DNA of 64,000 bases from Corallococcus sp. NCRR. Lineage in GTDB: Bacteria > Myxococcota > Myxococcia > Myxococcales > Myxococcaceae. Shown in pieces: positions 30,976 to 45,900 of this stretch. Every line of letters begins with the position of its first letter. Position 1 is the stretch's first letter. The stretch spans positions 7,907,461 to 7,971,460 of the forward strand of contig NZ_CP114039.1 of assembly GCF_026965535.1 (NCBI RefSeq). The letters run 5' to 3'. Under the pieces are notes generated by a model. That model was given only the letters and a program-made list of their open reading frames with translations. It ran no database searches and was not told where the DNA came from. The translations under genes and the position numbers were made by a program.

Positions 30976-31002
30976 TCCTTCGCTACTTCAGGCAGTGCCC
31001 AC

Positions 31003-31045
31003 GCCGCCCGTTTCCGGTCCTCCGGAAGCGAGGCGGCGTTTTCGT
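31003..31045 (+). terminator. Putative intrinsic terminator downstream of the ABC-F gene at the island boundary
   Basis: Imperfect inverted repeat gccgcccgtttccgg-tcct-ccggaagcgaggcggc followed by GTTTTCGTG. Confidence 0.4.
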
Positions 31046-31149
31046 GCAGGTGTCAATCACCCTCACGGGGGATGCAATCGCAGCGAGGAGTGCGCCAGAA
31101 CCTGGGGTGCCAGGTCGTCCCACCCATGACGACCCGGGGGGGCACCTCC

Positions 31150-34100
31150 ATGACTCCGAACGACTCGGTCCTGCTGAAAGAGCTTCAGCAGCAACGCACC
31201 CGGTTGCTGGATCTGAGCGCAACCAACCGACTCCTCCATTTCAAGCACACGGCCCGGACGTCGCTGCGCATTGTGGATGAATTGCCAGGTGTCGTCTTCG
31301 AGCGCCTGAGCAACCACCGCGCGCTCACGTTCCTGCCGGTGATGCCGCCGGCGCATGCCTCCAAGGAAGAGGAGGACGTCGACCCCGCCGCCGCGACGGT
31401 GGTGTTTTCGATGACGACGGAGGAAGCCCCCAGCAAGGACGCCCGTCAGAATCTGGTGCTTCAACAGGCGAAGAAGTTGGGCATTGATACCCGGTATGAG
31501 CTGCCCAAGGCGCTCCCGGCAGAGAGCGGCAGCAATCCTCGCAAGCACCAGGACCGCCACCTCCAGACGTTGTACTTCCCGGAGGATCTGGAGAGCCACT
31601 TGCACCGTATCCAGGGCCTCGCGCAAACGGCCATCCAGGAGACCGGAGCCAACCTGCTCCACTTCGTCTTCGGGTTCCTGCGCTGGTACGAGTCTGGCGA
31701 CACGCGGCAGGAGAAGCCTCGCAGCGCTCCGCTCGTGCTCATGCCGGTGAGCCTCAAGCGCGGTCAGGCGCACCCGGAGACGCAGGTCCACGCCTACGAA
31801 GTGGACTACAACGAAGGCGAGTCCATCGAAACGAACCTCACGCTCCAGGAGAAATTGCGGCAGGAATTCGGCATCACGCTGCCGGCCTTCTCCGCGGACG
31901 AGGGCCTGGAGGCGTACTTCGACAAGGTGACGACGCTGCTCAAGGGACTGCGTCCTGGCTGGAGCCTGGAGCGGCAGGTGACCCTGACGCTGCTGTCCTT
32001 CGGGCGGCTCCTGATGTGGCGGGACCTGGAGCCTACCCGCTGGCCCCAGAACAGTCCCATGCTGGCGAACCCGCTCGTCCGAACACTGATGGGAGGACAG
32101 GCGCAGGCGAACGAACCTGGTGGAGGTGGCGGGGGCAGTCGGGAACGCCGGAGCGAGGTCTACGACCTGGATTCACCCGAGGTAAATCCTCCGCCGCTCA
32201 TCACGGACGCCGACAGCAGCCAGCACAGTGTGTTGGTGGACGTACTCCGAGGCGAAAACCTGGTGGTCCAGGGGCCGCCTGGCACCGGGAAATCACAGAC
32301 CATCACCAACCTCATTGGCGCGGCGCTGGCGGCGGGCAAGACCGTGCTGTTCGTCACGCAGAAGCTGGCGGCGCTGGAGGTCGTCTCGCGCCGCCTCCAG
32401 CAGGCGGGGCTCGGCGAGTTCTGCCTGGAGTTGCATAGCCACAAGACCCAGAAACAGCAGTTCATGGAGGATCTGCGTCGACGACTCAACCTGGATACGA
32501 GCGCGAGCGCCCCTCGCCCTCTCACCGAACAGGTCTTGAGCGCGGCAGGCATCCTGCGCGCGCACACCGAGCGAATGCACAAGCCTTTCGGGACGCTCGG
32601 CATGTCACCGCACGACGTGTTCTGGAAGGTCAGTCGTGCGGAGTCAGAGTTGGGGGAAGCGGTCGTGGAGTTGGAGGGCCTCCGCTTCGAGGGCGCTGAA
32701 GGTATGTCCCCCCTTGCGCTGGCGGAGGTTCGCAACGCGGTTCGGAACCTCGCGGCGCAACTGGGGGATGTTCGCCGCGTCGCGCCCATCCTCAGTGCCC
32801 ACCCATGGGCGGGTGTAACGAACGATGCGCTGACCGACAAGGACCGCCAGACACTCATTCAACGGATCGCCACCTGGGAAGAGTCCGCCCTACTTCTAGA
32901 GAAGGCGCTGGCGACCTTCACCGTCCGCACGGGCGTCACGCCCAGGTCGAGCGCGCTCGCGGTGGATGCGCTGGTCTCCAACATCCGGGTCCTGCCGCAG
33001 CTTCCGGAGGGTGCTCCCGCAACGCTGGTCCCTGCCCTACTCGATTCGACGCAGCGCCAGGGATTACGAGTCCTGCTCGATGCCATCGAAGCGGTCCAGA
33101 AGCAGTGGGCGGGGTTGGAGGCGGGCTGGCGAGCCCAGGAGGACCTGACCGTGACCGCGCTGCGCGACGCGGAAGCCGTCCTCGACATTACCCTGCGCCT
33201 GCTCTCGCCTGACACCACGCTCGTCACCCTGACGCGCGCGCACGAAGCGGTGGAAGCAGCGGCCCGAGGCCTGGGGCAGGCTCGCCGGTTCGTTGCCGAA
33301 GTGGCCTTGCGCCTGGAGGTCGACGTCACGCTCTGGACGCCTCAACAAATCCAGATTTTCGCCCGCGTCGTCGAGGCCATGGCCGCCCTGGACGACACCA
33401 CTTTGGAGTGGCGGGACCCACGCTGGCTTGAGCGCGAAGCCGAGGAGGCACTTCGGAAAGCCGGGGTGACGTGCACGGAATTGAAAGAGCAGGGCCGGGC
33501 GCTCGCGGTGCGCTTCATGCCCGAGCTTGTCCCTCCCCTCGCAACACTCAAGTCCCATGCCGTCGCGGTTTCGACCGCGCCATTCATCCCCTGGTTCTCG
33601 GGCGCATGGCGTGCCGCGCGGCGGGACTTCCAGGCCATGGCTCATGGTGTCCGTCCAACAAAGCCCGTACTCATCCAGGGATACAACGACCTGCTGGCAC
33701 ATTACGCGGCACGGGAGCGGTTCCAAGAGGACGCGACCCTGAAAGAGACCCTGGGTGCCCGCTTCCAGGGAATCGAGACGCGTTTCGATCGAATCCTCTC
33801 GTGGTTGGACACATACCGGAACATCGACGCATTGCTCCTCCCAATGGGCGAGCGAGGTCTGGAGCTGCGCCGCGCGGTGTTGGAGCGTTCCCCGAGCCAG
33901 TGGCGAGATGCCCTGGCGAGGGTCCGCGCGAAGAGTGATGAACTTCCCCAGGTCCGCGACGTGAGTACCTCCGTGCAAGAGGCCTCGACGCGCATGGGGC
34001 TGCCGCACGCGCCCTGGAACACCGAGCCCTGCGGAAAGGCCCAGGACAGTCTCGACGCCCTGCTGAAGCACCTGGGTAAGGTTCTGCATTGGGCACGGAA

Positions 34101-36348
34101 GGGAGATGCCCCGCCGTCCCTGCCCCTCTCTCAACTCCAGGGACAGTTGCGCAGGGTGCGCGAGGCGTGCGGAGCCGCGGAGCGGCTGGAAGCTCACGCT
34201 CCCGCAGCGGCCCTGCCGGGGGTGGCCTACCAGGGCCGGAAAACCTCACTCGCGGGTCCCCGAAGCGTTCTTCGCCATGTCGATGCCCTCCTGGCGGCGC
34301 CGCTGCCGGAAGGTCTGGCGGAGTGGCTGCTGCGAGAGGACACGCCACGAAGGCACGCGGACCTGCATGCGGCCGCGAACGAGTTGGAGACCGGGCTCAC
34401 TGCCTATAGACAGTCCGCCGCCCAAGCCTGGGAACTGGGAAGGATGGCCCCGGGCACCTGGGAGGAACTCGCCACCGAGTCCCCGCTCCAATCGACGGTC
34501 TTGCGCCTGCGTCAGGCCCGAAGCCAGTCCGCGACGCTTCCGGCCTGGTGCGCGTATCAACGGCAGCGGCGCGCCGTCGCGCGAGCGCGGAGCACCGCCG
34601 GGTTCCTGGAGCGCGTCGACACACGCCCCGGTCTGGAGCCGGAACAGCTGGTCTCCGCCTTCGACGCTGTCTTCTTCCGCTCTCTGGCGGAAGCCATCCT
34701 GCGAGACCAACCAGAGCTCGATCAATTCACTGGCGCCATCCATGCATCCCAGCGAGAGGAGTTCGCACGCTTGGACACGCATTGCATCGAAAAGCAGGGC
34801 CGCTACCTGGCGCGTCAACTCAGCCAGCGTCCGGTTCCTCCCGGCGTGTCCTCGGCGAAGGTAGCGGGCATGACGGAGACTCATCTTCTGAGGCACGAGC
34901 TGGGAAAGAAGCAGCGGCACCTCCCCATCCGTGAACTGGTGGCACGCGCCGGCAGTGCGCTCCAGACGCTGATGCCGTGTTTCATGATGGGTCCGCAGTC
35001 TGTCGCCCAGTACCTGCCCGCCGGACAGCTGACCTTCGACCTGGTGGTGATGGACGAGGCCAGTCAGATGCGCCCCGAAGATGCCCTGGGAGCCATTGCC
35101 CGAGGAAAGCAGTTGGTAGTGGTGGGCGACCCGGAGCAACTCCCTCCCACCAGCTTCTTCGCCCAGATGGAGCAAGAGGACACAGACTCCAACGACGAGA
35201 CAGGACACGAGGCCGAGGGCCCGTCCTTCCTGGAGGATTCAGAGAGCATCCTCACGGCGGCGGCGGAGCGGTTCCCCATGCGCATGCTGCGCTGGCATTA
35301 CCGTTCCCGGCACCCCTCACTGATCGCCTTCAGCAATCGCGAGTTCTACAACGGTGACCTCATCACCTTCCCTGCACCGGGTGAGCAACTGGAAGGGTTG
35401 GGACTGCGCTTCCATAAGGTGGACGGAGGACTGTACGAGTCCAACCGCAACGTCCCCGAGGCTCGTGAGGTGCTCGCGAAGGTGAAAGAGCACGCGCGTA
35501 CACACCCCGAGCAAAGCCTGTTGGTCGTCACGTTGAACTCGAAGCAGCGGGATCTCATCGACGATCTGGTGACGGCCGAGGAGAAGAACGACGCGGACCT
35601 CCGGGCCTTCCTGGCGAGGTGGGAGAAGTCACCCATGCCTTTCGACGTGAAGAACCTGGAGAACGTCCAGGGCGACGAGCGCGACGCCATCTTCGTGTCG
35701 GTCACGTTCGGTCCGGACAAGAACGATCGCTTCCGGATGAACTTCGGACCCATCAACCAGGCGGACGGATACCGCCGGTTGAACGTCCTTTTCACGCGGG
35801 CGCGCTGCGCACTCACGGTGTTCGCGTCCTTCGACCCCTCGGACCTCAAGGTCCAGGAGAGCAGTCCCCGTGGGATGCGCGTCCTGCAACGGTACCTGTC
35901 CGAAGCCAAGGGAGAGAAGGTTGCGCACGGCGTGGGGAGCGGCCGTCCACCAGACTCCGACTTCGAAATCGCCGTCGCGAAGGCGCTCGCGGCGCGGGGC
36001 TTCGAGGTGGTTCCGCAGGTAGGTGTCGCGGGCTACTTCATCGACATGGCCCTCCGGCATCCCCAGCAATCGGGCCGATACATCCTCGGCGTCGAGTGTG
36101 ACGGCGAGCGGTACCACTCGTCGCGCTCCGCACGGGACCGGGATCGGCTCCGGGACCAGGTGTTGAAAGGCCTGGGGTGGAAGCTTCACCGCATCTGGTC
36201 CACGGATTGGTTCCGCTCGCCTTCAGAAGAGGTCGCCCGGATCGTCGCGCACGTTGAGGAACTCCTTCGGGAGGAGGCGGCTGGGTTGCCAGCCGTGGCG
36301 CGAGAAGAGTCCCCTGTGGATCAGCCAATGCGCGCCGTCAGCGCCTGA
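31150..36348 (+). CDS. DUF4011 / SF1 (Upf1-like) helicase / DUF3320 (Vsr/DUF559-like nuclease) giant protein; Hhe-like defence helicase-nuclease
   Basis: N-terminal DUF4011 (LLKELQQQRTRLLDLSATNRLLHFKH); Walker A VVQGPPGTGKSQTI; DEAS LVVMDEASQM; VVVGDPEQLPP; motif VI LNVLFTRARCALTVF; C-terminal Vsr-like IAVAKALAARGFEV...ILGVECDGERYHSS...RDRLRDQVLKGLGWKLHRIW; modestly lower GC than flanks. Confidence 0.82.
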   Translation: MTPNDSVLLKELQQQRTRLLDLSATNRLLHFKHTARTSLRIVDELPGVVFERLSNHRALTFLPVMPPAHASKEEEDVDPAAATVVFSMTTEEAPSKDARQNLVLQQAKKLGIDTRYELPKALPAESGSNPRKHQDRHLQTLYFPEDLESHLHRIQGLAQTAIQETGANLLHFVFGFLRWYESGDTRQEKPRSAPLVLMPVSLKRGQAHPETQVHAYEVDYNEGESIETNLTLQEKLRQEFGITLPAFSADEGLEAYFDKVTTLLKGLRPGWSLERQVTLTLLSFGRLLMWRDLEPTRWPQNSPMLANPLVRTLMGGQAQANEPGGGGGGSRERRSEVYDLDSPEVNPPPLITDADSSQHSVLVDVLRGENLVVQGPPGTGKSQTITNLIGAALAAGKTVLFVTQKLAALEVVSRRLQQAGLGEFCLELHSHKTQKQQFMEDLRRRLNLDTSASAPRPLTEQVLSAAGILRAHTERMHKPFGTLGMSPHDVFWKVSRAESELGEAVVELEGLRFEGAEGMSPLALAEVRNAVRNLAAQLGDVRRVAPILSAHPWAGVTNDALTDKDRQTLIQRIATWEESALLLEKALATFTVRTGVTPRSSALAVDALVSNIRVLPQLPEGAPATLVPALLDSTQRQGLRVLLDAIEAVQKQWAGLEAGWRAQEDLTVTALRDAEAVLDITLRLLSPDTTLVTLTRAHEAVEAAARGLGQARRFVAEVALRLEVDVTLWTPQQIQIFARVVEAMAALDDTTLEWRDPRWLEREAEEALRKAGVTCTELKEQGRALAVRFMPELVPPLATLKSHAVAVSTAPFIPWFSGAWRAARRDFQAMAHGVRPTKPVLIQGYNDLLAHYAARERFQEDATLKETLGARFQGIETRFDRILSWLDTYRNIDALLLPMGERGLELRRAVLERSPSQWRDALARVRAKSDELPQVRDVSTSVQEASTRMGLPHAPWNTEPCGKAQDSLDALLKHLGKVLHWARKGDAPPSLPLSQLQGQLRRVREACGAAERLEAHAPAAALPGVAYQGRKTSLAGPRSVLRHVDALLAAPLPEGLAEWLLREDTPRRHADLHAAANELETGLTAYRQSAAQAWELGRMAPGTWEELATESPLQSTVLRLRQARSQSATLPAWCAYQRQRRAVARARSTAGFLERVDTRPGLEPEQLVSAFDAVFFRSLAEAILRDQPELDQFTGAIHASQREEFARLDTHCIEKQGRYLARQLSQRPVPPGVSSAKVAGMTETHLLRHELGKKQRHLPIRELVARAGSALQTLMPCFMMGPQSVAQYLPAGQLTFDLVVMDEASQMRPEDALGAIARGKQLVVVGDPEQLPPTSFFAQMEQEDTDSNDETGHEAEGPSFLEDSESILTAAAERFPMRMLRWHYRSRHPSLIAFSNREFYNGDLITFPAPGEQLEGLGLRFHKVDGGLYESNRNVPEAREVLAKVKEHARTHPEQSLLVVTLNSKQRDLIDDLVTAEEKNDADLRAFLARWEKSPMPFDVKNLENVQGDERDAIFVSVTFGPDKNDRFRMNFGPINQADGYRRLNVLFTRARCALTVFASFDPSDLKVQESSPRGMRVLQRYLSEAKGEKVAHGVGSGRPPDSDFEIAVAKALAARGFEVVPQVGVAGYFIDMALRHPQQSGRYILGVECDGERYHSSRSARDRDRLRDQVLKGLGWKLHRIWSTDWFRSPSEEVARIVAHVEELLREEAAGLPAVAREESPVDQPMRAVSA

Positions 36349-36361
36349 ACAGGAAATATCC

Positions 36362-37927
36362 ATGACAACGATCATCGCCATTGGCCTGGGCGTTTTGGGC
36401 CTTTTGCTCCTGGGCTTGTTGCTGCGGACGCGAAGCCAACTCAAGGCGGTCCAGGCACGATTCAAGCCCATCCTGGACCTGGAGGCCGAACGACGCCGGC
36501 TCGCGGAGGAGTTGACGCAAGCCCGCACTGACGCAACCGCCGCGATGGCTGCGGAACAGAAGCGGGTCCAGGATGAGTTGGCGAAGTCCCGGAGCGAAGC
36601 GGACAATGCGCTGGCTGCGGAGCGGAAGCGGGTGGAAACCGAGCTCGCCCGCGCCAAGGCGGACGTAGAGCAGGCCATCTCCGCGGAGCAGGGCCGGGCG
36701 AAGGCGGAGTTGAACCGGATCCGCGAAGAAACGAACCGGACGACGCAAAGCGCGACGCGCGCCATGGAGGAGGCGGAAGCACGTCGAAAGCAGGCGAACA
36801 CCGAGCGGACCAGCCTGGAAACAGGCCTTGCCCGATTGAAAGCCGAATTGAAGGCATTGGAGGAAGAGGAGGTTCTGCTCACCTTCGGCTTCTACAAACC
36901 GGTGTACGCGCTGGCGTCGGTCAAGGAGTACGAGGACCGCTTGGAGAGGATCCGCGAATCGCAGAAGCAGATGCTGAAGAACAAGGAAGCAGCCACATGC
37001 TCCATTCAGTGGGAGGTGAATGGGAGCAAGGCGGAAGGCAAGAAGCAGATTGACCGGACCTTGAAGCTGATGCTCCGGGCGTTCAATGGCGAGGCGGACG
37101 CATGTGTGGCGAAGGTCTCCTACAAGAACGTGAAGGCCATGGAGACGCGTATCGAGAAGGCAGCTGCCGCCATCAATGGCCTCGCGGAGATCCAGCAGTG
37201 CGTCATTGCCAGGCGCTACGTCAAGCTCAAGGTCGAAGAGTTGATGCTCGCGTATGAGTACGAGGAGAAGGTGCAGCAGGAGCGTGACGAGCAGCGCCGG
37301 ATCCGGGAGCAGATGCGTGAGGAGGAGGCCGCCCAACGCGAACTGGAAAAGGCGAAACTGGAAGCGGAGCGCGAAGCGAAGCGCGACGCGGAGGCCCTGG
37401 CCAAGGCGAAAGCGGACTACGAGCAGGCCAAAGGCTCAGAGCAGCAGAAGTTGATGGAGCGCATCGCGGAGCTGGAGCGCCGTGTGGCGGAGGACCTGGA
37501 GAAGCAGCGGGCCATCTCCCAGGCCCAACTCACCCGGACAGGGCACGTCTACGTCATCTCCAACATCGGCTCGTTCGGGGAGGGCGTGTTCAAGATGGGC
37601 ATGACCCGCCGGCTGGTGCCCCAGGACCGCATCGACGAACTGGGAGACGCCTCGGTGCCGTTCGAGTTCGACGTTCACGCCATCATCCGGACCTCGGACG
37701 CCCCAGCCCTGGAAAACGCCCTGCACAAGGCCTTCGCGAACCGGCGCGTCAACCGCATCAACGAGCGCAAGGAGTTCTTCCGCGTCAACCTGGATGAGAT
37801 CGCGGAAGCGGTCCGCAAGCACCACGGCGAGTTTGAATTGACCCGGGTGGCCGAAGCTGCGGAATACCGGAAGACATTGGCACTCCAAGAGGAGGAACAG
37901 GGTCGACCCGGTGAGCGGGCCGCATGA
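36362..37927 (+). CDS. Membrane-anchored coiled-coil protein with DUF4041 and a C-terminal T5orf172 (GIY-YIG-superfamily) domain
   Basis: N-terminal TM MTTIIAIGLGVLGLLLLGLLL; long E/R/A/K-rich coiled coils; DUF4041 (LLTFGFYKPVYALASVKEYEDRLERIRESQ...); T5orf172 (GHVYVISNIGSFGEGVFKMGMTRRLVPQDRIDELGDASVPFEFDVHAIIRTSDAPALENALHKAF); starts 14 nt after the helicase stop. Confidence 0.78.
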   Translation: MTTIIAIGLGVLGLLLLGLLLRTRSQLKAVQARFKPILDLEAERRRLAEELTQARTDATAAMAAEQKRVQDELAKSRSEADNALAAERKRVETELARAKADVEQAISAEQGRAKAELNRIREETNRTTQSATRAMEEAEARRKQANTERTSLETGLARLKAELKALEEEEVLLTFGFYKPVYALASVKEYEDRLERIRESQKQMLKNKEAATCSIQWEVNGSKAEGKKQIDRTLKLMLRAFNGEADACVAKVSYKNVKAMETRIEKAAAAINGLAEIQQCVIARRYVKLKVEELMLAYEYEEKVQQERDEQRRIREQMREEEAAQRELEKAKLEAEREAKRDAEALAKAKADYEQAKGSEQQKLMERIAELERRVAEDLEKQRAISQAQLTRTGHVYVISNIGSFGEGVFKMGMTRRLVPQDRIDELGDASVPFEFDVHAIIRTSDAPALENALHKAFANRRVNRINERKEFFRVNLDEIAEAVRKHHGEFELTRVAEAAEYRKTLALQEEEQGRPGERAA

Positions 37928-39701
37928 ATTCGGCCCCGCCTACACTTCTGGTAGCGTTCACCTCTCAATGAGTTCCAACCCGTTTTCGTTTCCTGGGGAT
38001 GCGCTCCCCGACGCTGTCATTTCTGCCTCTAAAACTCGGAAAATCGCGTTCCTGGTAGGCTCTCCCTTGTCGACACAGGAAAGAGCCGACGCGCCCCAGG
38101 TTCCTGGCGTGAGCGCGATGGTGGCTCTGATCCGCGAGCACCTTCCGGCCGAAGCCCAAGCAAAATTTGACGCAGACCGACTGCATAACCAATCCAACGA
38201 GTACCAATGGGCCATGCGCTTCCTGCAGGGCCGAAGCAACAAAACGGCCGCCGAGAAAGTCGTACGAGAAGCTGTCCTCCGGGCACGGCTGGATCGACAA
38301 AAGGATGGCGCTGCCACGGACGAACAGCTTGACCAAGACTATCGTGGATGGGCGCTGCCGCCTGCGACGGAGCACCTCGGCAAACTCCTGGTGGAGAGGG
38401 CCGACAAGTTTGGTCCTGTCTTGACTACAAACTTCGACCCCCTCATCTCCGCGTCAATCAAGATGGCTGGCGGGAATTTCCATCGCACCCTCGTAGTCAA
38501 CGACAGTCCCTTCGGGCATACGACGCCGTCCTCCAACTCGACACACATCATTCATCTGCACGGGTACTGGCACAATTCGCCCACGCTACATACCAGCGCA
38601 CAGATCGCTCGTGATCGTGATCAGGTCGCCGCAGAACTCGTTCAGATCCTTCAAAACCACACACTCATTGTCGTCGGATACGGCGGCTGGGATGACATCT
38701 TCACCAAGACGCTCTCAGCGATCAACGCCAACCGGCACAATGACGTCGACATTCTCTGGGCATTCTACGAAACCGAAGCAGACCATCTGCTTGAGGCTCG
38801 CTATCAGCATCTATTCAGCAAGGTCACCAACTTAAGAGGCAATACGGGCCTTCGCTGCTACAGCGGAATCAATTGCCACAAATTCTTCCCTGAACTGCGG
38901 AGGCAGTTTGACGCATCCATTGCCCCGCAGACGCTCCCTCCCAGCACAATCCGACCGCCACCGCAGCCATCCTCCACAAGGGCCCCAAGCTCCAAAGCAT
39001 CTGAGCCAGTCGCCTCGACATCCTCAAGTGCGGCGAAGCCACCCGCGCCTGTGCCCCCCGTGTCGGACCGTCCCGCCTCCCCTTCCATTCCGAAAACAGA
39101 CGGCTCGGGCAGCCCTCCGAAATCGGGCTCCAGGAGGATCCTTACGTTTGCGGCAGCCGCGCTGATTGCCGGCGGGATGGCAGCAGTCTGGCCATCCCCG
39201 AGCAAAGACGTCAGCAATGACGTCTTCGTCGTTCAGACTCCGCGCAATCTGAGGCCTGTCCAGCCGCAGCCTCCTGCGGCTTACACTCCGTTCCCATCTC
39301 CCGCCGGTGGAACACTCCGGACCGCCCGCCAGCAACACCAGGTCGTACCTGCTTCGGACGCCGAACGTGGGACTCGCGTCTCGCAGCTTCCCAGGGGCCG
39401 TTACGCCTTTGTCCCGATGAGCGCTGTTCCCACCTATAGCGCGGACACATCCATCTATGGCCCGATCCAGGAGGGAATCGAGCTTCATCGCGCCCTCTCG
39501 GATGGGTCCCTGTACCTCGTGGGCTACGCGGATGCTCCAACCATCACGGCCCTGGGATATCCGAACCCTGCTCCCATCGTCATCACCCCCACGCCCAGCA
39601 ACAGAAGGACGCAGGTCGCGAGCATTCCCGTGACCCGGATGGCCACCGCGGAAGTTCGCATGGACAAAGGCACCCGCGTGTTGGTCCTCCACCTCAACTA
39701 A
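37911..39701 (+). CDS. SIR2_2-family (defence-type sirtuin-like) protein with Pro/Ser-rich linker, single TM helix and C-terminal domain; GTG start at 37911 overlaps the upstream gene (alternative ATG 37968)
   Basis: SIR2_2 motifs KIAFLVGSPLS, VLTTNFDPLISAS, HIIHLHGYWHN, LIVVGYGGWDDIF; low-complexity PPQPSSTRAPSSKAS... linker; TM ILTFAAAALIAGGMAAVWP; about 190-aa C-terminal region. Confidence 0.72.
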   Translation: MSGPHEFGPAYTSGSVHLSMSSNPFSFPGDALPDAVISASKTRKIAFLVGSPLSTQERADAPQVPGVSAMVALIREHLPAEAQAKFDADRLHNQSNEYQWAMRFLQGRSNKTAAEKVVREAVLRARLDRQKDGAATDEQLDQDYRGWALPPATEHLGKLLVERADKFGPVLTTNFDPLISASIKMAGGNFHRTLVVNDSPFGHTTPSSNSTHIIHLHGYWHNSPTLHTSAQIARDRDQVAAELVQILQNHTLIVVGYGGWDDIFTKTLSAINANRHNDVDILWAFYETEADHLLEARYQHLFSKVTNLRGNTGLRCYSGINCHKFFPELRRQFDASIAPQTLPPSTIRPPPQPSSTRAPSSKASEPVASTSSSAAKPPAPVPPVSDRPASPSIPKTDGSGSPPKSGSRRILTFAAAALIAGGMAAVWPSPSKDVSNDVFVVQTPRNLRPVQPQPPAAYTPFPSPAGGTLRTARQQHQVVPASDAERGTRVSQLPRGRYAFVPMSAVPTYSADTSIYGPIQEGIELHRALSDGSLYLVGYADAPTITALGYPNPAPIVITPTPSNRRTQVASIPVTRMATAEVRMDKGTRVLVLHLN

Positions 39702-39707
39702 CAATCA

Positions 39708-40370
39708 ATGACACTCAACAATCGAATCCTCATTCTTGGGCTGACGTCGGTTATCCTGCTAGCGGGCTGTGGGCCCGAGGACTTCAGCCCGGGCCCCATC
39801 ACGGAAGACCCGCCACTCGAAGAAATTTGTACTTCGGCGAACTGCGCAGGCTGCTGCGATCCAACCACGAACAAGTGCGTCGAAGTTCGCACCAACGATG
39901 CATGCGGAGTCACCGGCACCCAATGCACGAAGTGCGCGACCGGGACCATCTGCCATCCATCACAGCAGCAGTGCTACACCCCCACCATCCGCACGAAGAT
40001 CCAGCCTCTGCGCGCCCAGATCGCGCCGCAGGATCCTGCCGACAACAGTGATTGGGATGTGGATGGCTCGCCGCCGGATGTCGTGATCAAGCTGTCCTGC
40101 CCCAACGCGCAGCCTGCGCCCCCATCCGAGGAAGTTGAAAGCTTCACTCCCACCTGGACGAAGGGGGCATGCGACGTCCTGAGCACCGATCTGCTTTCGG
40201 CCCCCATCCAGTTCAGCGTCATCGACGTCGACACCCTCTTTGACGACCCGATTGCGTCGGTGCAGTACCAGGTGACTCGAGCCGACACTGACCGTGGCGT
40301 CCTGGAGTTCACGGGGTCCGGTGCGTTGCTCTCCGTGGCTTTCCAGGTCACCACCTACTACGCCGAATAG
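39708..40370 (+). CDS. Cys-rich lipoprotein (paralogue of 47184..47801)
   Basis: Lipobox ILLAGCGP; Cys-rich N-terminal module (CTSANCAGCCDPTTNKCVEV...CGVTGTQCTKCATGTICH...CYTP); shared motifs DWDVDGSPPDVVI and VQYQVTRAD with the 47184 gene; starts 7 nt after the SIR2 gene. Confidence 0.58.
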   Translation: MTLNNRILILGLTSVILLAGCGPEDFSPGPITEDPPLEEICTSANCAGCCDPTTNKCVEVRTNDACGVTGTQCTKCATGTICHPSQQQCYTPTIRTKIQPLRAQIAPQDPADNSDWDVDGSPPDVVIKLSCPNAQPAPPSEEVESFTPTWTKGACDVLSTDLLSAPIQFSVIDVDTLFDDPIASVQYQVTRADTDRGVLEFTGSGALLSVAFQVTTYYAE

Positions 40371-41488
40371 ACGGATACCTCGATCCGCCGCCAGCGTTGC
40401 TGGATGCTGGCGGCCATGTGCTTGCGGAGGTTTGCCATCCAGCGCTGACACGTCCTGGTCGCATCCTGCTCCCCTGCATTGAAGCCCAGTTCCAGGTCGA
40501 GGGCCCAATGCAGACTGGTGATGGCCTCGAGCCGCAGCTCATCCGGGGCCTTGAGCCGCGAGCGGGCCGCTGCCTCGAAGCATGGGTCCAGGAGGAGTGC
40601 CGCGATCGTGAGTTGAGGGCACGCCCCGCTTCGCCGGTCGATCAGCTCCCACAGTGCCGCCAGTGGCTCCGGACGCGCTCCGCCAATCAGCATCGCGACA
40701 ACGGCCAGCTTGTGGAAGATGGGATGTGTCTCACGGAAGAGCGCGAGGATTTCAGCATCCACGCCAGGACTCATCTCCACCGCTGCTTCCACGTGCAGCA
40801 CCAGCTCCTTACGGTCCAACCATCGGAGCGCGCGCGGGCCGGGGTCGAGAAGGAGGGCATCCATGAACGATGGGTACCCGCCATACTCCTGATAATAGCG
40901 CACACCTGCATTGCCCAGTCCCGCCCGCGCGTAGGTGCGAGGCCGGTCCGACAGAACGCCCGCGACACACGCTTCCTCCATGTCACAGCAAGACAACTCC
41001 GCGCCTCGGAGATTGGCGCAGCGCAGGTCCGCCTTCATCAATGTCGCTGCGGTCAAACGGGCGCCCTGAAGCCGGACGCGGCGGAATGAGCCGCGCACCA
41101 GGTTCGAAGCCGTGAGGGTCGCCCCTTCCATGGAGGCATCGTCCCAGCAGGTGCCCATCGCGACACACGCCATCAAACTGGCGCGCTCCAATCGCGCCCA
41201 GGACAGCGAGGCACCTGACAACGTGGCGAAGTCGAGCCGCGCCTCTTGGAGCCCGCAGTCGTCCAGACGGGCGCCATCGAGCCGTACATGGACGAGATCC
41301 GCGCCCGGTAGCTCTTCTTGTGTGAGGTCGATGCCTCGGAGATCCCCCACTTGGGGCCCCAGTGCATCCGCTCCCGGAAAGCCCTTGAGGACTTCACGCC
41401 AGGGCCCCTGGAATCCCGAGGCGAGCAGTCGCTCGCGCCGATGCAAGCCATCAGGTGTGAGCCAGCGCTCTGTCAGTTCGGGCAGCAT
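40358..41488 (-). CDS. Pentapeptide-repeat protein
   Basis: Many tandem A(D/N)LxG-type pentapeptides (ADLVHVRLDGARLDDCGLQEARLDFATLSGASLSWARLERASL...; ADLRCANLRGAELSCCDMEEA). Confidence 0.8.
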   Translation of the reverse strand: MLPELTERWLTPDGLHRRERLLASGFQGPWREVLKGFPGADALGPQVGDLRGIDLTQEELPGADLVHVRLDGARLDDCGLQEARLDFATLSGASLSWARLERASLMACVAMGTCWDDASMEGATLTASNLVRGSFRRVRLQGARLTAATLMKADLRCANLRGAELSCCDMEEACVAGVLSDRPRTYARAGLGNAGVRYYQEYGGYPSFMDALLLDPGPRALRWLDRKELVLHVEAAVEMSPGVDAEILALFRETHPIFHKLAVVAMLIGGARPEPLAALWELIDRRSGACPQLTIAALLLDPCFEAAARSRLKAPDELRLEAITSLHWALDLELGFNAGEQDATRTCQRWMANLRKHMAASIQQRWRRIEVSVYSA

Positions 41489-41591
41489 GGCCGGGCTATA
41501 ACACCTGGAACCAGAGGCGTTCGATGCCCTCCGGAACGTTCGCTATTCCTGATGCCGGGAGCACGGGTACCAGTGGGTATGATGCAAGGCC

Positions 41592-43043
41592 ATGTACCCG
41601 ATTCGCCGCCTTCTCGTTCGTGGACCGTGGTTGTTCGACCTCCGACCGCATCGGCTCATCGCCTTCCACGGAGCTGAAGGCATGCGCCGGGAGGTAGAAG
41701 GAGACGTGCCGGAGTACTCGTCCGCGCCCGTAGTGCTCGCCGCGCTCAATGAGTCAACGGACGTCTGGGTGGGAAGCGGGGATCGGCGTGTCTTCTCCGT
41801 GAGCACCGATGTGAGCGCATCCGTTCAGGCCTTTCCGAGGGAATGCTTCGATCTCACCTCCGATGGGAACCGGCTCATTGGAACGATGGTGGACGGCGCC
41901 CTCAAGCTGACCACCGTCTTCACGACCGATGGGTCCGGGCAGCGTTGGGAGCCCATGACTTTGCCCAAGCCCGTGTCCACCACGCACGGGTATGGCTATT
42001 CCGAGGGACGCCCTCCCCGTCAGTCCCCAGATGGGGCGTTCCTCGACACGAGCCCCTTTGGCATCACCGTCGTGGAGAAGGGCCGGGGCCGCGTCTACGT
42101 GCTCCGCTCGGGGGCGGCTCAGCCGGAGGGCGCGCTCCAGGTGGAACCGGGCCATGAGCAGGACATCTGGCGGGCCCTGGCCACTTCCCAGGGTGTGCTT
42201 CTCCTGCTCGTCATCGACTACCGGCAGACGGTGCTTCTTCACTTCGCGCTCGACGGCACCCTACTCGGCTCCCTCCCGTCCAACGATGAGGATGAGGACG
42301 AAGATGACGTTGAACTGACCTGGGGCGGTAAAGGGGTGTGCGTTCTCGACTCGGAGCGGGCGCTCCTCTTCGTGCAGGACAAGACCCTCCTGGTATCCCT
42401 GCCCGGGCTCCAGGTGCTTGAGACGCTCGCGGGGGAGTGGCCCCAATTCGTGTCCGTGGCGCCCGCTGGGCCAAACCGGTGGTGGGTGGGGTCCGAGGAC
42501 AGTGACGCGCTCTTCCTGCTCACCGCCGAGCCCGGACAGCCCTTGCGCCTCGACACCTCGAACCGTCCGGTGAGCCCGGGCGCGCCGCTCATGCACGTGG
42601 GCTACAAGACACCCACGCTCCACTGGACCGAACACACCTCGGCACCGCTGACTGTGTCCGCGCCCGTGTCCGAGACGTGGCGGGCGGTGGTGCGCAATGA
42701 CGGGACCGCGTGCGAGGCGGTACGGATCCGCGTGTCCGGGGTGCTCATCGGTGCTCGTGTGGTGGACGTGAGCGTGCGGTATCGCGGTCAGCCACTCCCG
42801 ATGGAGGAGGAGCACCGCGTGAACGTCGTGGGGGTTACCGGCGGCCTGGAGGCAGGGGCCACCGCGGAGCTGGAGATGACCTTCAAGCCCCGGAGCGAGG
42901 GCTCAGGACCGCTGACCATCACCGTCGAGCCATGCTCCTGGCAGTCTCAGGGCAAAGAGTGGCAGTGGGACAAAGAGCCGTCTCGCGTCCTCGTGGTGAC
43001 GGGCCATTCGGCATCCGCTCAATTCCTGCTCACGGTGGAGTAG
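41592..43043 (+). CDS. Hypothetical protein (possible beta-propeller-like N-terminal half plus Ig-like C-terminal)
   Basis: 483-aa ORF with ATG at 41592, consistent coding bias, no recognisable catalytic motif. Confidence 0.5.
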   Translation: MYPIRRLLVRGPWLFDLRPHRLIAFHGAEGMRREVEGDVPEYSSAPVVLAALNESTDVWVGSGDRRVFSVSTDVSASVQAFPRECFDLTSDGNRLIGTMVDGALKLTTVFTTDGSGQRWEPMTLPKPVSTTHGYGYSEGRPPRQSPDGAFLDTSPFGITVVEKGRGRVYVLRSGAAQPEGALQVEPGHEQDIWRALATSQGVLLLLVIDYRQTVLLHFALDGTLLGSLPSNDEDEDEDDVELTWGGKGVCVLDSERALLFVQDKTLLVSLPGLQVLETLAGEWPQFVSVAPAGPNRWWVGSEDSDALFLLTAEPGQPLRLDTSNRPVSPGAPLMHVGYKTPTLHWTEHTSAPLTVSAPVSETWRAVVRNDGTACEAVRIRVSGVLIGARVVDVSVRYRGQPLPMEEEHRVNVVGVTGGLEAGATAELEMTFKPRSEGSGPLTITVEPCSWQSQGKEWQWDKEPSRVLVVTGHSASAQFLLTVE

Positions 43044-44199
43044 CGCGAACCTTCTCGGGCTCGGGTGCGGCGCTCATCCTCCAGAGCAGGGCGCCTCCCC
43101 CAATGACGACTCCCAGGCCCACTGCCGCCGCGAGGATCCATCCTCGTCCCAGGCGGGGCCGTGCCTGGCTCTCCGGGCCGTCCGGAGCCGGGGCAATGAC
43201 GCTCGGATCGTCGCTCGGTGAGACCTGTTGGACGAGTTGGGCCACCTGTTTCGGTGTCACCGGCTCCCTCACCGAACGGATGAAGGCCTCCAGGTCCTTC
43301 CGGAACGCGTGGCAGTCCGGATACCGCTCGTCCCGATCCTTCGCGAGCGCCCGGGCGAGGATGGCTCGTAGGGCATCGGGCAGGTCTGGCCGGTGCTGCT
43401 CGGCAGGGACGATGGGCTCAGTCGCGACGACCCGAAACAAGTCCCAGTCGGACGTGGACTCAAAGGGCCTACGCGTGGTGAGCAGTTCGTAGAGCACCAG
43501 ACCCAGCGCGTAGACGTCCGCCCGCCGGTCCAACGGCCTGCCCATGACCTCCTCGGACGCCATGTACCTGTACTTGCCTAGGTTGGGCATGGGGTGTTCG
43601 GGTGTCCACCGGATCCGGAAATGCTCGATGCCGAAGTCCACCACCTTCGTCGTCCCCTGGCGCGACAGGAGGATGTTGTACGGCCGGATGCAGCGGTGGA
43701 TGAGCCGCAGCGGCTGGTTCGTCTCGGGGTCGGTGAGGTCGTGGGCATAGGCGAGCCCCTCGCAAGCTTGCGAGATGATGCGCGCGCACAGCGTCGCTGG
43801 CAGGGTCATCCGCTGGGCCACCACGTGATTGATCACCCCGCGCAGGCTGGGCCCATCAACGTGCTCTCTCGCGAGAAAGTACGTGCCTTCCGCCTCACCT
43901 ACATCAAAGACCTTCCCGAGGTGCGGGTGCGTGAGCCGGGCGGCGTCCCTCGCCGTGTCGAGGAACATCTCCGGGACATCCACCTGCTCCGCCATGTCCG
44001 AGCGGAGGCACTGGAGCACCAGCGTCTTCTCGACGCCCCGCGGGCCGGCGGCCGTGGCCAGATGGTCCTCGATGATGCCTTCGGAGAGCAGGCGGATGCG
44101 CTGGTATTTGCCGACTTGGGATGTCACGGGGCGTATGAATAGCAGACCATGACCCGCTACCGCTTCCTTGGGCTTCTGCTGGCGCTGCTGCCTCTCCAT
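43030..44199 (-). CDS. Degenerate Ser/Thr protein kinase (pseudokinase) with C-terminal TM anchor
   Basis: Kinase fold recognisable (DFG present: VVDFGIE; C-lobe YALGLVLYELL) but no Gly-loop, beta3 Lys absent (VLQCLR), catalytic loop HRCIRPYN instead of HRDLKPxN, SEE instead of APE; TM GWILAAAVGLGVVIGGGALLW; ATG at 44199 (alternative GTG at 44127); the track ORF upstream extension is antisense. Confidence 0.6.
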   Translation of the reverse strand: MERQQRQQKPKEAVAGHGLLFIRPVTSQVGKYQRIRLLSEGIIEDHLATAAGPRGVEKTLVLQCLRSDMAEQVDVPEMFLDTARDAARLTHPHLGKVFDVGEAEGTYFLAREHVDGPSLRGVINHVVAQRMTLPATLCARIISQACEGLAYAHDLTDPETNQPLRLIHRCIRPYNILLSRQGTTKVVDFGIEHFRIRWTPEHPMPNLGKYRYMASEEVMGRPLDRRADVYALGLVLYELLTTRRPFESTSDWDLFRVVATEPIVPAEQHRPDLPDALRAILARALAKDRDERYPDCHAFRKDLEAFIRSVREPVTPKQVAQLVQQVSPSDDPSVIAPAPDGPESQARPRLGRGWILAAAVGLGVVIGGGALLWRMSAAPEPEKVRATPP

Positions 44200-45900
44200 G
44201 TCAGCGCTGTCCCCATTCCAGCGGAGCAGTTGGTGGGAACCTGGGGCAGTGAGCGCGTCCTCGGACCTCAGGTTCGCGGAGAGTTGACACTGGTTCGTGA
44301 AGGAACGACGTGGCGAGCATGCATCGCGGGCTTCGACGTCCCGGCCCAGGTCGAGGGCCGCAAGGTGTCCGTCGTCTTCCCAGGCGGCGAACTCCGAGCG
44401 ACGTTGGCGGAGAACGGCCAGATCATCTCGGGGCACTGGATCCAGCCGCGCGTGCTCATGAGCGGCATGAAGTTCGCCTCTCCCGTGGAGCTGCGCGCGC
44501 TTCAGCCGAGGGTCTGGCGCGGCAACGTGGCTCCGCTGGAGGACCGGTTCTCGCTGTACCTCGTCGTCCAGAAGCAGCCTGACGGCTCCGTGACGGCATT
44601 CATCCGCAACCCGGAGCGGAACTTCGGCAACCGCATGCTGTTCCGCGTGGAGCTCCAGGACCGCACGGTCCGGCTCACGTCCACCAAGGACAACACCCGT
44701 ATCGAAGGCACGTTCGACGCGCAGTCCGGACGGCTGTCCCTCCCCTACCCTCCCTTCGACACGATGTTCGACTTCACCCGCCGGGACCGTTCGCAGGCCG
44801 TGGGTCTCTACTCCCGCACACCTGCTCCCGGCCCCTACGCCTACCAAAAGCCCATCGCGGAGGATGACGGTTGGACCACGGCATCCCCTACCGACGTCGG
44901 CATGGACATCCAGCCGCTCCAGCAACTCGTGCAGCGCATCCTCGACCAGGAACCGAGCCCGGAATCCGTCCCCGCCATTCAGGGCCTGCTCATCGCGCGC
45001 CATGGAAAGCTCATCCTCGAAGAGTACTTCCAGGGCTTCGACAAGGAGCGTCCCCATGACCTGCGGTCCTCCTCCAAGTCCTATGCGTCCCTGCTGATTG
45101 GCATTGCCCTGGACCAGGGCGCCCCCTTCACCGTGGACACGCCCGTCGCGTCACTCTTCCCCGAGTACAAGGGCAAGCTCTCCAACCTGGACGCGCGCAA
45201 GCGCAAGCTCACCGTCGCTCACCTGATGACCATGGCCACGGGTCTGGCCTGTGACGACGACGATCCGGATTCACCTGGCAACGAGGACCGGCTCGAGGAC
45301 TCCGTACCGGATTGGTACAAGTACACGCTAGACCTCCCCATGGTCCGCGCTCCCGGCGGTGGGAAGGCCGTGTACTGCTCCGCGAACATCAACCTGCTCG
45401 GGGGCATCCTCCACAACACCACCCGCACCTGGATCCCCGAGTTCTTCACCCAGAACGTCGCCACGCCCCTCCAGATGCGCGGCTACCACCTGGACCTGAT
45501 GCCCGACGGCGAGCAGTACCTGGGCGGCGGCATCTACATGCGTCCCCGCGATGCCCTGAAGCTCGGGCAGCTCTACCTCTCCGGCGGCACGTGGAATGGG
45601 AAGCGCGTGGTGAGCCAGCGATGGGTGGAACGCTCCGTCGCGAAACAGGCGACGATGCCGGATGGACGAACCTACGGCTACACGTGGTGGCGCCATGAGC
45701 TTCGCGTCGGTGACCGGGTGTATTCGCAGTACGAAGCCAGCGGCAACGGTGGCCAGCTCGTGATGGTCGTCCCGGAGCTGGACCTCGTCGTGCTGTTCAC
45801 CGCGGGCAACTACAACCACGTCTCCCTCTGGCGGAAGTTCCGCGAGGAGCTCCTGCCCCGGTACGTCATGGCCGCGGTCACGGCTCCCCCGCGGCCCTGA
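44149..45900 (+). CDS. Beta-lactamase-family serine hydrolase (class C / PBP-like) with N-terminal extra domain
   Basis: Signal peptide MTRYRFLGLLLALLPLHVSA; SxxK motif SSSKSYASLLIGIAL; YxN-like; starts 50 nt inside the divergent pseudokinase 5' end. Confidence 0.8.
   Translation: MTRYRFLGLLLALLPLHVSAVPIPAEQLVGTWGSERVLGPQVRGELTLVREGTTWRACIAGFDVPAQVEGRKVSVVFPGGELRATLAENGQIISGHWIQPRVLMSGMKFASPVELRALQPRVWRGNVAPLEDRFSLYLVVQKQPDGSVTAFIRNPERNFGNRMLFRVELQDRTVRLTSTKDNTRIEGTFDAQSGRLSLPYPPFDTMFDFTRRDRSQAVGLYSRTPAPGPYAYQKPIAEDDGWTTASPTDVGMDIQPLQQLVQRILDQEPSPESVPAIQGLLIARHGKLILEEYFQGFDKERPHDLRSSSKSYASLLIGIALDQGAPFTVDTPVASLFPEYKGKLSNLDARKRKLTVAHLMTMATGLACDDDDPDSPGNEDRLEDSVPDWYKYTLDLPMVRAPGGGKAVYCSANINLLGGILHNTTRTWIPEFFTQNVATPLQMRGYHLDLMPDGEQYLGGGIYMRPRDALKLGQLYLSGGTWNGKRVVSQRWVERSVAKQATMPDGRTYGYTWWRHELRVGDRVYSQYEASGNGGQLVMVVPELDLVVLFTAGNYNHVSLWRKFREELLPRYVMAAVTAPPRP

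Follow-up and report, generated by a model that had tools for sequence, protein, structure and literature searches.

Four co-directional ORFs, here named A to D, were found by ORF listing in the window, i.e. the whole 64,000-nt stretch of Corallococcus (Myxococcota) DNA that was analysed. An earlier note had described these genes in almost the same terms and had called the region a candidate composite anti-phage island, a label that we retain. The island and its left boundary consist of the following features:

31001..31044, + strand: intrinsic-terminator-like hairpin closing the ABC-F gene, the left island boundary (RNA fold)
31072..36348, + strand: gene A, Hhe-like SF1 (Upf1-type) helicase with a Vsr/MTES_1575-type nuclease (Pfam, PADLOC, NCBIfam)
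36362..37927, + strand: gene B, SNIPE / PD-lambda-1 homologue (PADLOC, Pfam, architecture)
37968..38930, + strand: gene C, N-terminal cytoplasmic SIR2_2 domain, predicted NADase effector (Pfam, motifs)
38931..39290, + strand: gene C, Pro/Ser-rich disordered linker and single transmembrane (TM) helix (hydropathy)
39291..39701, + strand: gene C, C-terminal extracytoplasmic domain (CTD) of unannotated fold, and stop codon
39708..40370, + strand: gene D, lipoprotein that combines a Cys-rich module with a C2 domain at its C-terminus

The boundary hairpin 3' of the ABC-F gene, already recognized in the earlier note, has a 17-bp stem and then a UUUU tract; its dG is -39.7 kcal/mol (z -4.5 relative to shuffled sequences). 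The intergenic gaps are 13 nt between A and B, 40 nt between B and C, and 6 nt between C and D, which corrects the 14 and 7 nt given previously for the first and last of them. The GTG codon at 37911, from which gene C had been read as overlapping gene B, does exist and gives a 17-nt overlap; however, the conserved start is ATG 37968, from which the B-C gap is counted. The homologues of 575-576 aa start there, and in the related C. coralloides locus (L001) the longest possible gene C ORF begins at the equivalent ATG. For gene A, ATG 31126 and ATG 31150 are alternative starts. Terminator-like sites between the four genes are no commoner than in shuffled sequence. Because of this and the short gaps, genes A to D are probably co-transcribed, and their synergy in Corallococcus is therefore possible.

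The island differs from its flanks in base composition and in divergence. A lower GC content had been reported (about 55-60% versus 65-72%); the decrease is real, but its size was overstated, since genes A-D have 60-66% GC, compared with a mean of 69% for the window; 57% is found only in the SIR2-coding part. GC3 equals 0.68-0.83 in A-D (0.68-0.76 in C and D, with the minimum of the locus, 0.66, in the SIR2 part) versus 0.93-0.97 in the flanking core genes. As an indicator, GC3 separates the island from the flanks much better than GC. In comparison with L001, synonymous divergence rises across the left boundary from 0.06 in the adjoining ABC-F gene to 0.30 in gene A, and dS within the island is 0.30-0.43. 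All four genes are under purifying selection (omega 0.07-0.21), and the gene C linker evolves neutrally (omega about 1). The SIR2 module of gene C has a dS of 1.16 and is thus a mosaic, swapped allele.

The earlier domain calls for gene A agree with Pfam, where DUF4011, AAA_11/12/30 and MTES_1575 all exceed their cutoffs; the sequence contains the Walker A motif GPPGTGKS and the Walker B motif DEAS. PADLOC scores PDC-S37 (1258 bits) above Hhe (942 bits). In NCBIfam, the Hhe_antiphage score of 1424.9 bits lies below the equivalog cutoff of 2000, as does the ProA score of 1124.7 with respect to its cutoff of 1500. The alignment to Hhe_antiphage ends at profile position 1689 of 1797, and no Pfam match to DUF3320 was found at E <= 0.01. 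Plasmid relatives (37-38% identity) carry the hhe annotation, and in 3/3 annotated plasmid contexts they stand alone. By these profile comparisons, gene A is a PDC-S37-type variant of the Hhe family without the DUF3320 tail, i.e. a known single-gene type, as hhe itself is a single-gene system (bioRxiv 10.1101/2024.10.10.617714; PMC10925250). It shares with Hhe (HheA) and PDC-S37 the DUF4011 domain, the SF1 Upf1-like helicase and the Vsr/MTES_1575-type endonuclease in one polypeptide of ~1750 aa, but differs from Hhe in the absence of the C-terminal ~100 residues (the DUF3320 region), in falling below the NCBIfam cutoff, and in its better fit to PDC-S37.

Gene B, correctly described before as a membrane-anchored DUF4041-T5orf172 protein, combines a TM helix at its N-terminus with a coiled coil, DUF4041 and a T5orf172 nuclease of the GIY-YIG superfamily. 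The Pfam scores all exceed cutoffs (DUF4041, 74.5 bits; T5orf172, 65.6 bits; MUG113, 65.2 bits), and the PADLOC PD-Lambda-1 profile is matched with E 8e-152 over positions 50-477 of 496. The N-terminal hydrophobic helix comprises residues 3-22 (TIIAIGLGVLGLLLLGLLL), which lie in the first ~70 aa where the SNIPE anchor is expected, and is followed by RTRSQLK. Plasmid-borne homologues are 40-59% identical over the C-terminal two thirds and unrelated in the sequence of the N-terminal region; such dissimilar N-terminal regions are typical of the SNIPE family (PMC13190303). Relatives of gene B had no conserved partner in 3/3 annotated plasmid contexts, and A, C and D were not found near them in 34 metagenomic loci, 11 of which extend >= 2 kb upstream and 17 >= 2 kb downstream. 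SNIPE (PD-lambda-1), discovered by Vassallo et al. 2022 (PMC9519451), is a single-gene inner-membrane-anchored GIY-YIG nuclease that in E. coli cuts phage DNA during injection (Saxton et al., Nature 2026; PMC13190303). The single N-terminal TM helix, the elongated helical region, DUF4041 and the C-terminal GIY-YIG/T5orf172 domain are common to SNIPE and gene B. On this architecture, gene B is assigned to the SNIPE type, and on the contexts of its relatives it probably acts as an autonomous single gene. Its membrane tether, mentioned in the earlier note as part of the unrecognised linkage, is a defining SNIPE feature and no novelty, one N-terminal TM helix being present in 59% of SNIPE homologues (PMC13190303).

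Gene C was previously proposed to encode a membrane-anchored SIR2-like protein, and both parts of this proposal are supported: Pfam SIR2_2 scores 44.8 bits (cutoff 24.5), and a single Kyte-Doolittle peak of 1.79 marks a hydrophobic segment at aa 391-409 (nt 39138-39194). This segment is flanked by four K/R residues on its N-terminal side and one on its C-terminal side, and because of this excess the protein is predicted to be N-in/C-out. Residues N155 and D157 (TTNFD) and H198 (HLHG), which we take to be catalytic, as in SIR2 NADases, are invariant in 18 homologues and align to VLTTNFD and HIHG of the SIR2-like protein FAM118B, the best PDB sequence match of the domain. The SIR2 domain is thus probably, as judged from these motifs, an NAD+-destroying enzyme. 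Outside the myxobacteria, its closest relatives (35-41% identity, E around 1e-50 to 1e-60) are the SIR2 domains that form part of NB-ARC/NACHT STAND proteins or of TIR-SIR2 proteins. No NCBIfam match was obtained for gene C, and neither PADLOC 2.0 nor NCBIfam r20 contains a model for the CTD. In PADLOC, gene C weakly matches PDC-S65 and pAgo-associated SIR2 (E 2e-9 to 6e-3) within the SIR2 core only (aa 156-305), and no HerA, pAgo or LmuB gene is present among the neighbouring ORFs. With core-only matches and no partner gene, its assignment to a named SIR2 system (DSR1/2, PDC-S65, SIR2-HerA, pAgo-SIR2 or Lamassu-SIR2) was rejected. SIR2_2 with TTNFD and HLHG is kept as in SIR2-STAND/Avs, TIR-SIR2, DSR, Lamassu-SIR2 and pAgo-associated SIR2 proteins, but the cytoplasmic sensor of those systems (a STAND NTPase, SMC, pAgo, etc.) is replaced by the linker, TM helix and predicted periplasmic CTD, together with a separate lipoprotein.

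This lipoprotein, the product of gene D, begins with MTLNNRILILGLTSVILLAG-C, a signal peptide ending in the lipobox LLAGC; C21, the predicted lipidation cysteine, is invariant in 15 family members. The protein contains 13 Cys (13-14 are conserved in the family), which fits, as expected, a disulfide-rich periplasmic protein and upholds its description as a Cys-rich lipoprotein. The C2 domain has a beta-sandwich fold with acidic loop residues and is predicted to be of the Ca2+/lipid-binding type. PADLOC 2.0 and NCBIfam r20 contain no model for gene D. Since D-family lipoproteins form 138 clusters versus 20 known representatives of CTD proteins, and since a stand-alone paralogue (D2, 47184-47801, with a core-like GC3 of 0.90) lies 7 kb away, the family is not tied exclusively to gene C.

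Gene D had been regarded merely as the terminal gene of the island. However, a D-family gene lies directly downstream of the CTD protein gene in 18/18 loci examined; the two genes overlap by 4 nt in two of these, abut (0 nt) in one and are otherwise up to 71 nt apart. These loci form seven effector/context groups with four effector classes, not all of the groups being shown to be independent:

L001, L002: Corallococcus loci with A and B upstream of C+D
L003-5: Myxococcus loci with an HSDR_N gene upstream of C+D
L008: further C+D locus with HSDR_N upstream
L006/7: SIR2-type C+D loci with no adjoining A, B or HSDR_N gene
L015-19: PNP-type CTD+D loci
L021: EAD5-PNP-type CTD+D locus
L020: LmuA-like-type CTD+D locus
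L056-58: TIR-type CTD+D loci

The context sample is small, and some groups may represent orthologous positions; a fatty-acid desaturase neighbour is common to L003-5 and L008. The CTDs are homologous across effector classes (E 2e-9, 1.7e-13, 1.3e-10 and 5e-12). Each CTD protein has one TM segment, with K/R enriched on the N-terminal flank in 9/10, and one protein (P0145) carries the CTD as three tandem copies behind a signal peptide; both observations lend the predicted topology indirect support, as do the lipobox and the Cys content of D. The N-terminal domains match models of known immune effectors, namely the PADLOC models 'Effector PN-superfamily' and PDC-M60C, LmuA (E 9e-91), TIR_2 (E 2e-28) and EAD5, the EADs being domains of conflict systems in multicellular prokaryotes (PMC7159879). 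Neighbouring genes include Hhe and SNIPE at the present locus, a PDC-M17A HNH gene in L015, a PemK toxin gene in L021 and a phage-type integrase gene in L056. The family is almost entirely confined to Myxococcota, where its distribution is patchy, with the 20 CTD representatives coming from a search of 1.84 billion proteins. Identity matrices of CTD and D are correlated (Pearson 0.93, Spearman 0.32), although this is not proof of co-evolution because close relatives dominate. We conclude that C and D are conserved partners in a previously undescribed two-gene module.

The locus is best explained, with a probability of roughly 60%, as a defence island of three independent units: gene A, gene B, and C+D as an envelope-sensing abortive-infection module. 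In such a module, a cytoplasmic NAD+- or nucleotide-degrading effector (SIR2 here; PNP, LmuA-type or TIR elsewhere) would be tethered via the linker and one TM helix, which would join it to the small periplasmic CTD of novel fold. The lipoprotein and the CTD, presumably in physical contact, would keep watch on the envelope; if it were disturbed, for example by the adsorption or penetration of a phage, this would be relayed across the membrane, and the SIR2 domain would be released or oligomerised, depleting NAD+ and aborting the infection. More tentatively, C+D may constitute a new immune class that senses infection outside the cytoplasm, via the disulfide-rich C2 lipoprotein and the CTD, and signals through the single TM helix to interchangeable effectors. 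The detected cue would then be a disturbance of envelope or lipids caused by the phage, or else one of its tail or ejection proteins, and the stand-alone D2-like paralogues might be native envelope proteins that the lipoprotein of the system mimics or guards.

The trigger could also be of another kind. Myxococcota, being social and predatory, have many conflict systems that are not directed at phages, and since the C+D family is nearly confined to this phylum, its target need not be a phage. The module might sense that other bacteria are attacking the envelope, be it in kin discrimination, through outer-membrane-exchange toxins, in contact-dependent killing or in predation, and respond by NAD+ depletion, resulting in altruistic suicide or dormancy. 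The taxonomic range, the EAD5 domain of one member, which is known from multicellular-prokaryote conflict systems (PMC7159879), and the predicted periplasmic and lipid-binding sensor parts, placed where such attacks arrive, would suit this reading. It is nevertheless unlikely in our estimation, as the identifiable neighbours are anti-phage-type or mobile (Hhe, SNIPE, PDC-M17A, integrase), and for SIR2, TIR, PNP and LmuA-type domains an effector role in anti-phage defence is the best documented one. A housekeeping role, with C+D as an envelope-to-cytoplasm signalling pair, e.g. a Ca2+/lipid-responsive deacylase or ADP-ribosyltransferase, could account for the core-like codon usage of the stand-alone D2 (GC3 0.90) and for the C2 domain, a general lipid/Ca2+ sensor. 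Such an enzyme would not be expected to swap four unrelated NAD+/nucleotide-degrading domains, and the low GC3 (0.68-0.76), the rarity of the family, the island-like divergence and the mosaic SIR2 allele further make this explanation extremely improbable.

Two other explanations concern the borders of the system. The earlier note proposed that A, B, C and possibly D form one system for abortive infection or NAD depletion, or else that B and C serve an Hhe variant as accessory effectors, and would have given this up if the genes proved to be known single-gene systems or occurred separately. Tight co-directional packing with no excess of terminator-like sites is compatible with a single system, as are the identical four-gene order in C. 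coralloides (L001), partly seen in C. interemptor (L002), and the weak countering of E. coli hhe by phage NAD+-reconstitution genes (bioRxiv 10.1101/2024.10.10.617714). This linkage, however, is restricted to one genus and one chromosomal position; PADLOC places both A (Hhe/PDC-S37) and B (PD-Lambda-1) in single-gene systems, and their relatives stand alone elsewhere; homologues of C occur in Myxococcus and metagenomes without A and B, C+D being free of them in five or more of the other effector/context groups; and the parts differ in GC3 and dS history. By the note's own terms the proposal does not hold, and we regard it as very unlikely. Narrower borders would make C a stand-alone SIR2 defence protein, like DSR or PDC-S65, and D an unconnected envelope lipoprotein. 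The PADLOC matches of the SIR2 domain, the stand-alone paralogue of D and the excess of D-family genes over CTD proteins could be read in this way, but those matches span the core only, whereas D follows the CTD protein in every locus and behind four unrelated effector domains, in several cases with overlapping or abutting genes, so that separate functions for C and D seem highly improbable.

The three-unit reading, with C+D as an envelope-sensing module, has partial parallels among known systems. Like Lamassu, CBASS, Thoeris and Avs, C+D combines one chassis with interchangeable effectors (SIR2, PNP, LmuA-type FAD/NAD Rossmann and TIR); unlike them, its chassis, a TM-CTD protein and a C2 lipoprotein, is predicted to be extracytoplasmic and lacks SMC, cyclase and STAND components as well as any evident second-messenger machinery. 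Coupling of envelope events to cytoplasmic immune output by a membrane component would be shared with the motor-like ZorAB complex of Zorya (PMC11890865) and with DdvA, an M. xanthus transmembrane anti-sigma factor that controls a CBASS/CRISPR island via transcription (PMC11506125). As DdvA shows, myxobacteria do use envelope-to-immunity logic (PMC11506125). With ZorAB and DdvA, C+D has no sequence or architectural relationship, and in contrast to the transcriptional action of DdvA it would be coupled directly to an enzyme in the same polypeptide.

For annotation, the locus illustrates that a system is not defined by how tightly genes are packed in a defence island: an undescribed pair here shares one probable operon with two known single-gene systems. 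In most of the abortive-infection systems characterised, phage components are sensed in the cytoplasm, and the C2 fold is known for membrane binding in perforin, synaptotagmin and cPLA2. If the proposed function is correct, C+D would differ from most such systems by coupling a periplasmic domain and a lipid-binding lipoprotein directly to NAD+/nucleotide-depleting enzymes; it would provide a tractable model for trans-envelope infection sensing, add a bacterial role for C2 domains, represent another re-use of the SIR2/TIR/PNP effector toolkit on a new chassis, and make a start on describing the poorly charted defensome of Myxococcota.

The locus consists of four co-directional ORFs, as the earlier note had essentially correctly observed, which follow a terminator-like hairpin downstream of a housekeeping ABC-F gene ending at position 30975. 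The ORFs encode an Hhe-like helicase-nuclease (A), a homologue of SNIPE (B), a SIR2 protein with a transmembrane (TM) helix and a C-terminal domain (C), and a Cys-rich C2 lipoprotein (D):

31001-31044, terminator-like hairpin (dG -39.7 kcal/mol, z -4.5)
31072-36348, gene A, 1758 aa, GC3 0.80
36362-37927, gene B, 521 aa, GC3 0.83
37968-39701, gene C, 577 aa, GC3 0.68
39708-40370, gene D, 220 aa, GC3 0.76

The intergenic gaps A-B, B-C and C-D are 13, 40 and 6 nt, and at its stop, a convergent gene for a pentapeptide-repeat protein overlaps the 3' end of D by 13 nt. The GTG at 37911, proposed earlier as the start of C, exists; the conserved start, instead, is the ATG at 37968, with which the initial Met of the C homologues (575-576 aa) aligns, and the C ORF of C. 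coralloides KYC2213 (locus L001) cannot be extended upstream of the equivalent ATG. In this high-GC window (69%), the proteins of which find their best matches in Corallococcus (Myxococcota), the island has a GC content of 60-66%, a modest drop against the flanks, while GC3 divides it clearly from the core genes tgt, ABC-F and yihY (0.93-0.97). Within the locus, terminator-like sites are not in excess (9 versus 7.3 +/- 1.9 in shuffled sequence), and a scan detected no sigma-70-like promoter, a consensus from which myxobacterial promoters may deviate. A low-GC3, strongly diverged block extends beyond D (40358-45900) and encodes the pentapeptide-repeat protein (376 aa; 81% identical to its L001 counterpart over aligned codons and 71% over the full length by tblastn), a 483-aa ORF without a Pfam match, a Ser/Thr kinase and a beta-lactamase-fold protein. 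The interval between D and D2, a paralogue of D, spans 7.5 kb in the window versus 4.7 kb in L001, and its gene content differs.

The protein A contains the Pfam domains DUF4011, AAA_11/AAA_12/AAA_30 and the restriction-endonuclease-like domain MTES_1575, whereas the Pfam search found no DUF3320. Among the PADLOC models, PDC-S37 (1258 bits) scores above Hhe (942 bits). The alignment with the NCBIfam equivalog model Hhe_antiphage (1797 positions) covers residues 38-1737 and profile positions 2-1689; its score, 1425 bits, falls short of the cutoff of 2000. A is filed as an Hhe-like, PDC-S37-type variant and not as an equivalog. Hhe is described as one gene that encodes both a helicase and a nuclease domain (bioRxiv 10.1101/2024.10.10.617714), its helicase being assigned to the SF1 Upf1 subfamily (PMC10925250). 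Plasmid relatives of A with 37-38% identity are annotated as 'DUF4011 domain-containing anti-phage protein Hhe', and no SNIPE or SIR2 gene neighbours hhe in Vibrio, Klebsiella and Ralstonia replicons. Two genes of phage Bas63 for NAD+ reconstitution, g79 and g80, weakly counteract E. coli hhe, and according to the authors hhe defence may involve depletion of NAD+ or adenine (bioRxiv 10.1101/2024.10.10.617714); beside this link, it is curious that the SIR2 gene C lies two genes 3' of A. In the P. aeruginosa defence hotspot cDHS1, a large DUF4011 gene forms a conserved core flank (PMC10250203). Hhe-like genes may more generally be markers or borders of variable defence regions, as with A adjoining the ABC-F core gene.

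The protein B, with the Pfam domains DUF4041, T5orf172 and MUG113, is assigned by PADLOC to PD-Lambda-1 (E 8e-152), a system now renamed SNIPE (PMC13190303). The E. coli SNIPE is a single-pass inner-membrane protein with the DUF4041 and GIY-YIG domains on the cytoplasmic side, and it cuts lambda DNA while this is being injected; one N-terminal TM helix is present in 59% of SNIPE homologues, the N-terminal region of which is hypervariable (PMC13190303). The architecture of B is exactly the same, down to the hydrophobic N-terminus. Hence its membrane anchor, previously regarded as unusual, is one of the features that define SNIPE and no novelty, and B adds a member to a known kind. Relatives of B stand alone in Hymenobacter, E. 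coli and Leptospira replicons. Homologues of A, C and D were absent by tblastn from 34 metagenomic loci with B relatives (40-82% identity), 11 of which have at least 2 kb of upstream and 17 at least 2 kb of downstream sequence. The nearest plasmid homologues of B (H1/H2, 58-59% identity) reside on Hymenobacter plasmids, and a C homologue with 46% identity and a truncated C-terminal part (P0010) is attributed to a Hymenobacter MAG; these matches could stem from horizontal gene exchange of soil Bacteroidota with Myxococcota, or else from a mis-binned MAG.

The protein C is built of four parts: the SIR2_2 domain (Pfam) at the N-terminus, a linker rich in Pro and Ser, a single hydrophobic segment flanked by basic residues on its N-terminal side, and a conserved C-terminal domain of ~135 residues, predicted to be extracytoplasmic (CTD). 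In the SIR2_2 domain, N155 and D157 of the TTNFD motif and H198 of the HLHG motif are invariant. Outside its own family, this domain is nearest to the SIR2 domains of NB-ARC/NACHT STAND and TIR-SIR2 proteins, and its sole sequence match in the PDB is the SIR2-like FAM118B. In PADLOC 2.0 and NCBIfam release 20, D has no match, and C has either none or matches confined to the SIR2 core. No description of a SIR2/TM/lipoprotein/C2 defence system was found in the literature searched, the coverage of which was limited.

A scan of the genome collection with C as the only query retrieved two close Corallococcus loci and no others. In three Myxococcus loci (L003-L005), a full-length C homologue including the CTD (35% identity) is followed by a D homologue (37% identity); Hhe and SNIPE are absent, and a gene for an HSDR_N-domain protein lies upstream instead. 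L008 shares this layout:

L003-L005 8768-9976 and L008 8639-9877, HSDR_N-domain protein, 402-412 aa, 24-123 nt upstream of the C homologue

HSDR_N corresponds to the PD-(D/E)xK-like N-terminal part of the R subunits of type I restriction systems, and this protein could be a third component of the Myxococcus-type variant. In L006 and L007, C and D overlap by 4 nt and have neither A, B nor an HSDR_N-type gene beside them. Altogether, a tblastn sweep found C and D adjacent in all eight loci (L001-L008), while A and B occur solely in the Corallococcus loci. Further putative C-D pairs, suggested by contigs of equal length, are P0008/P0204, P0009/P0127, P0006/P0123 and P0012/P0156. In a mirror-tree comparison, the identity matrices of the CTD and D correlate with a Pearson coefficient of 0.93, which is due to three near-identical Corallococcus pairs, and a Spearman coefficient of 0.32. 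The proposal that A, B and C, possibly with D, form one multi-gene abortive-infection or NAD-depletion system is unsupported, since A and B stand alone elsewhere and C+D occurs in L003-L008 without them. The island comprises three units: an Hhe-like gene and a SNIPE gene, which are unremarkable representatives or variants of systems already known, and C+D, a real, well-supported and new module of two genes that is apparently undescribed.

Variants of this module were approached through metagenomic D-family lipoproteins and through a CTD-only search, which gave 20 matches among 1.84 billion representatives. By both routes, the linker-TM-CTD part was also found behind N-terminal domains other than SIR2:

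L015-19, P0139, P0142: PNP_UDP_1 (CTD match E 2e-9; PADLOC 'Effector PN-superfamily')
L021: EAD5 and PNP
L020, P0144, P0146: FAD/NAD Rossmann (matches the Lamassu effector protein LmuA, E 9e-91)
L056-58: TIR (CTD match E 5e-12)

Every effector variant has a D-family gene downstream; the spacing varies between an overlap of 4 nt and a gap of 71 nt, and in L020 the stop codon of the upstream gene is immediately followed by the ATG of the D-family gene. Among the neighbours identified at these loci are a PDC-M17A HNH protein, a PemK toxin and a phage-type integrase. In all three TIR contigs, the TIR-TM-CTD gene is preceded by a conserved protein without a Pfam match:

L056 3952-5823, L057 519-2390, L058 98-1981: protein of 623-627 aa

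In L056, the phage-type integrase lies just upstream. Two proteins carry the CTD without this arrangement: P0145 (526 aa) has a signal peptide, three tandem CTDs and no effector, and P0143 (329 aa) has a TM helix, the CTD and an additional C-terminal domain. Both proteins support the predicted location of the CTD and show it to be an autonomous extracytoplasmic module that is not confined to the two-gene system. The cadherin-repeat protein P0137 also matched the CTD, in 8 short stretches, but this match was regarded as spurious.

Nei-Gojobori estimates between the window and L001 give a dS of 0.06 for the core ABC-F gene versus 0.30 for A, 0.38 for B, 0.43 for the CTD of C, 0.33 for D and 0.41 for the pentapeptide-repeat gene, so that the alleles of the island long predate the divergence of the two strains. 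Whole-gene omega values of 0.07-0.21, with about 1 only in the linker of C, indicate purifying selection on all four genes. The SIR2 domain of C (37968-38930 versus L001 10004-10970) reaches a dS of 1.16, with sliding windows up to above 3, and thus has a history separate from the remainder of its gene. These values suggest a recombinant, mosaic allele with its breakpoint near the linker; such a separate history is effector swapping at the microevolutionary scale.

A second Cys-rich C2 lipoprotein is encoded nearby:

47184-47801, + strand, D2, 205 aa, 38% identical to D

Flanked by a GST-like and a yihY-like gene, D2 stands alone, with a core-like GC3 (0.90) and a low dS versus L001 (0.14). 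D-family lipoproteins outnumber CTD proteins (138 clusters versus 20 representatives). Given this surplus and the core-like, lone D2, D could have been recruited from, or mimic, a native envelope protein, and D2 may represent the native paralogue that gave rise to the lipoprotein of the module.

Beyond the architecture, pairing, modularity and selection of C+D, which the analysis shows, we infer a mechanism in which D and the periplasmic CTD would watch the envelope, a signal would pass through the TM helix of C, and the predicted SIR2 NADase would be switched on, leading to abortive infection. According to the main rival explanation, inter-bacterial attack and not phage serves as the trigger, which is plausible because the C+D family is nearly restricted to social, predatory Myxococcota. 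The C+D module is worth experimental follow-up.
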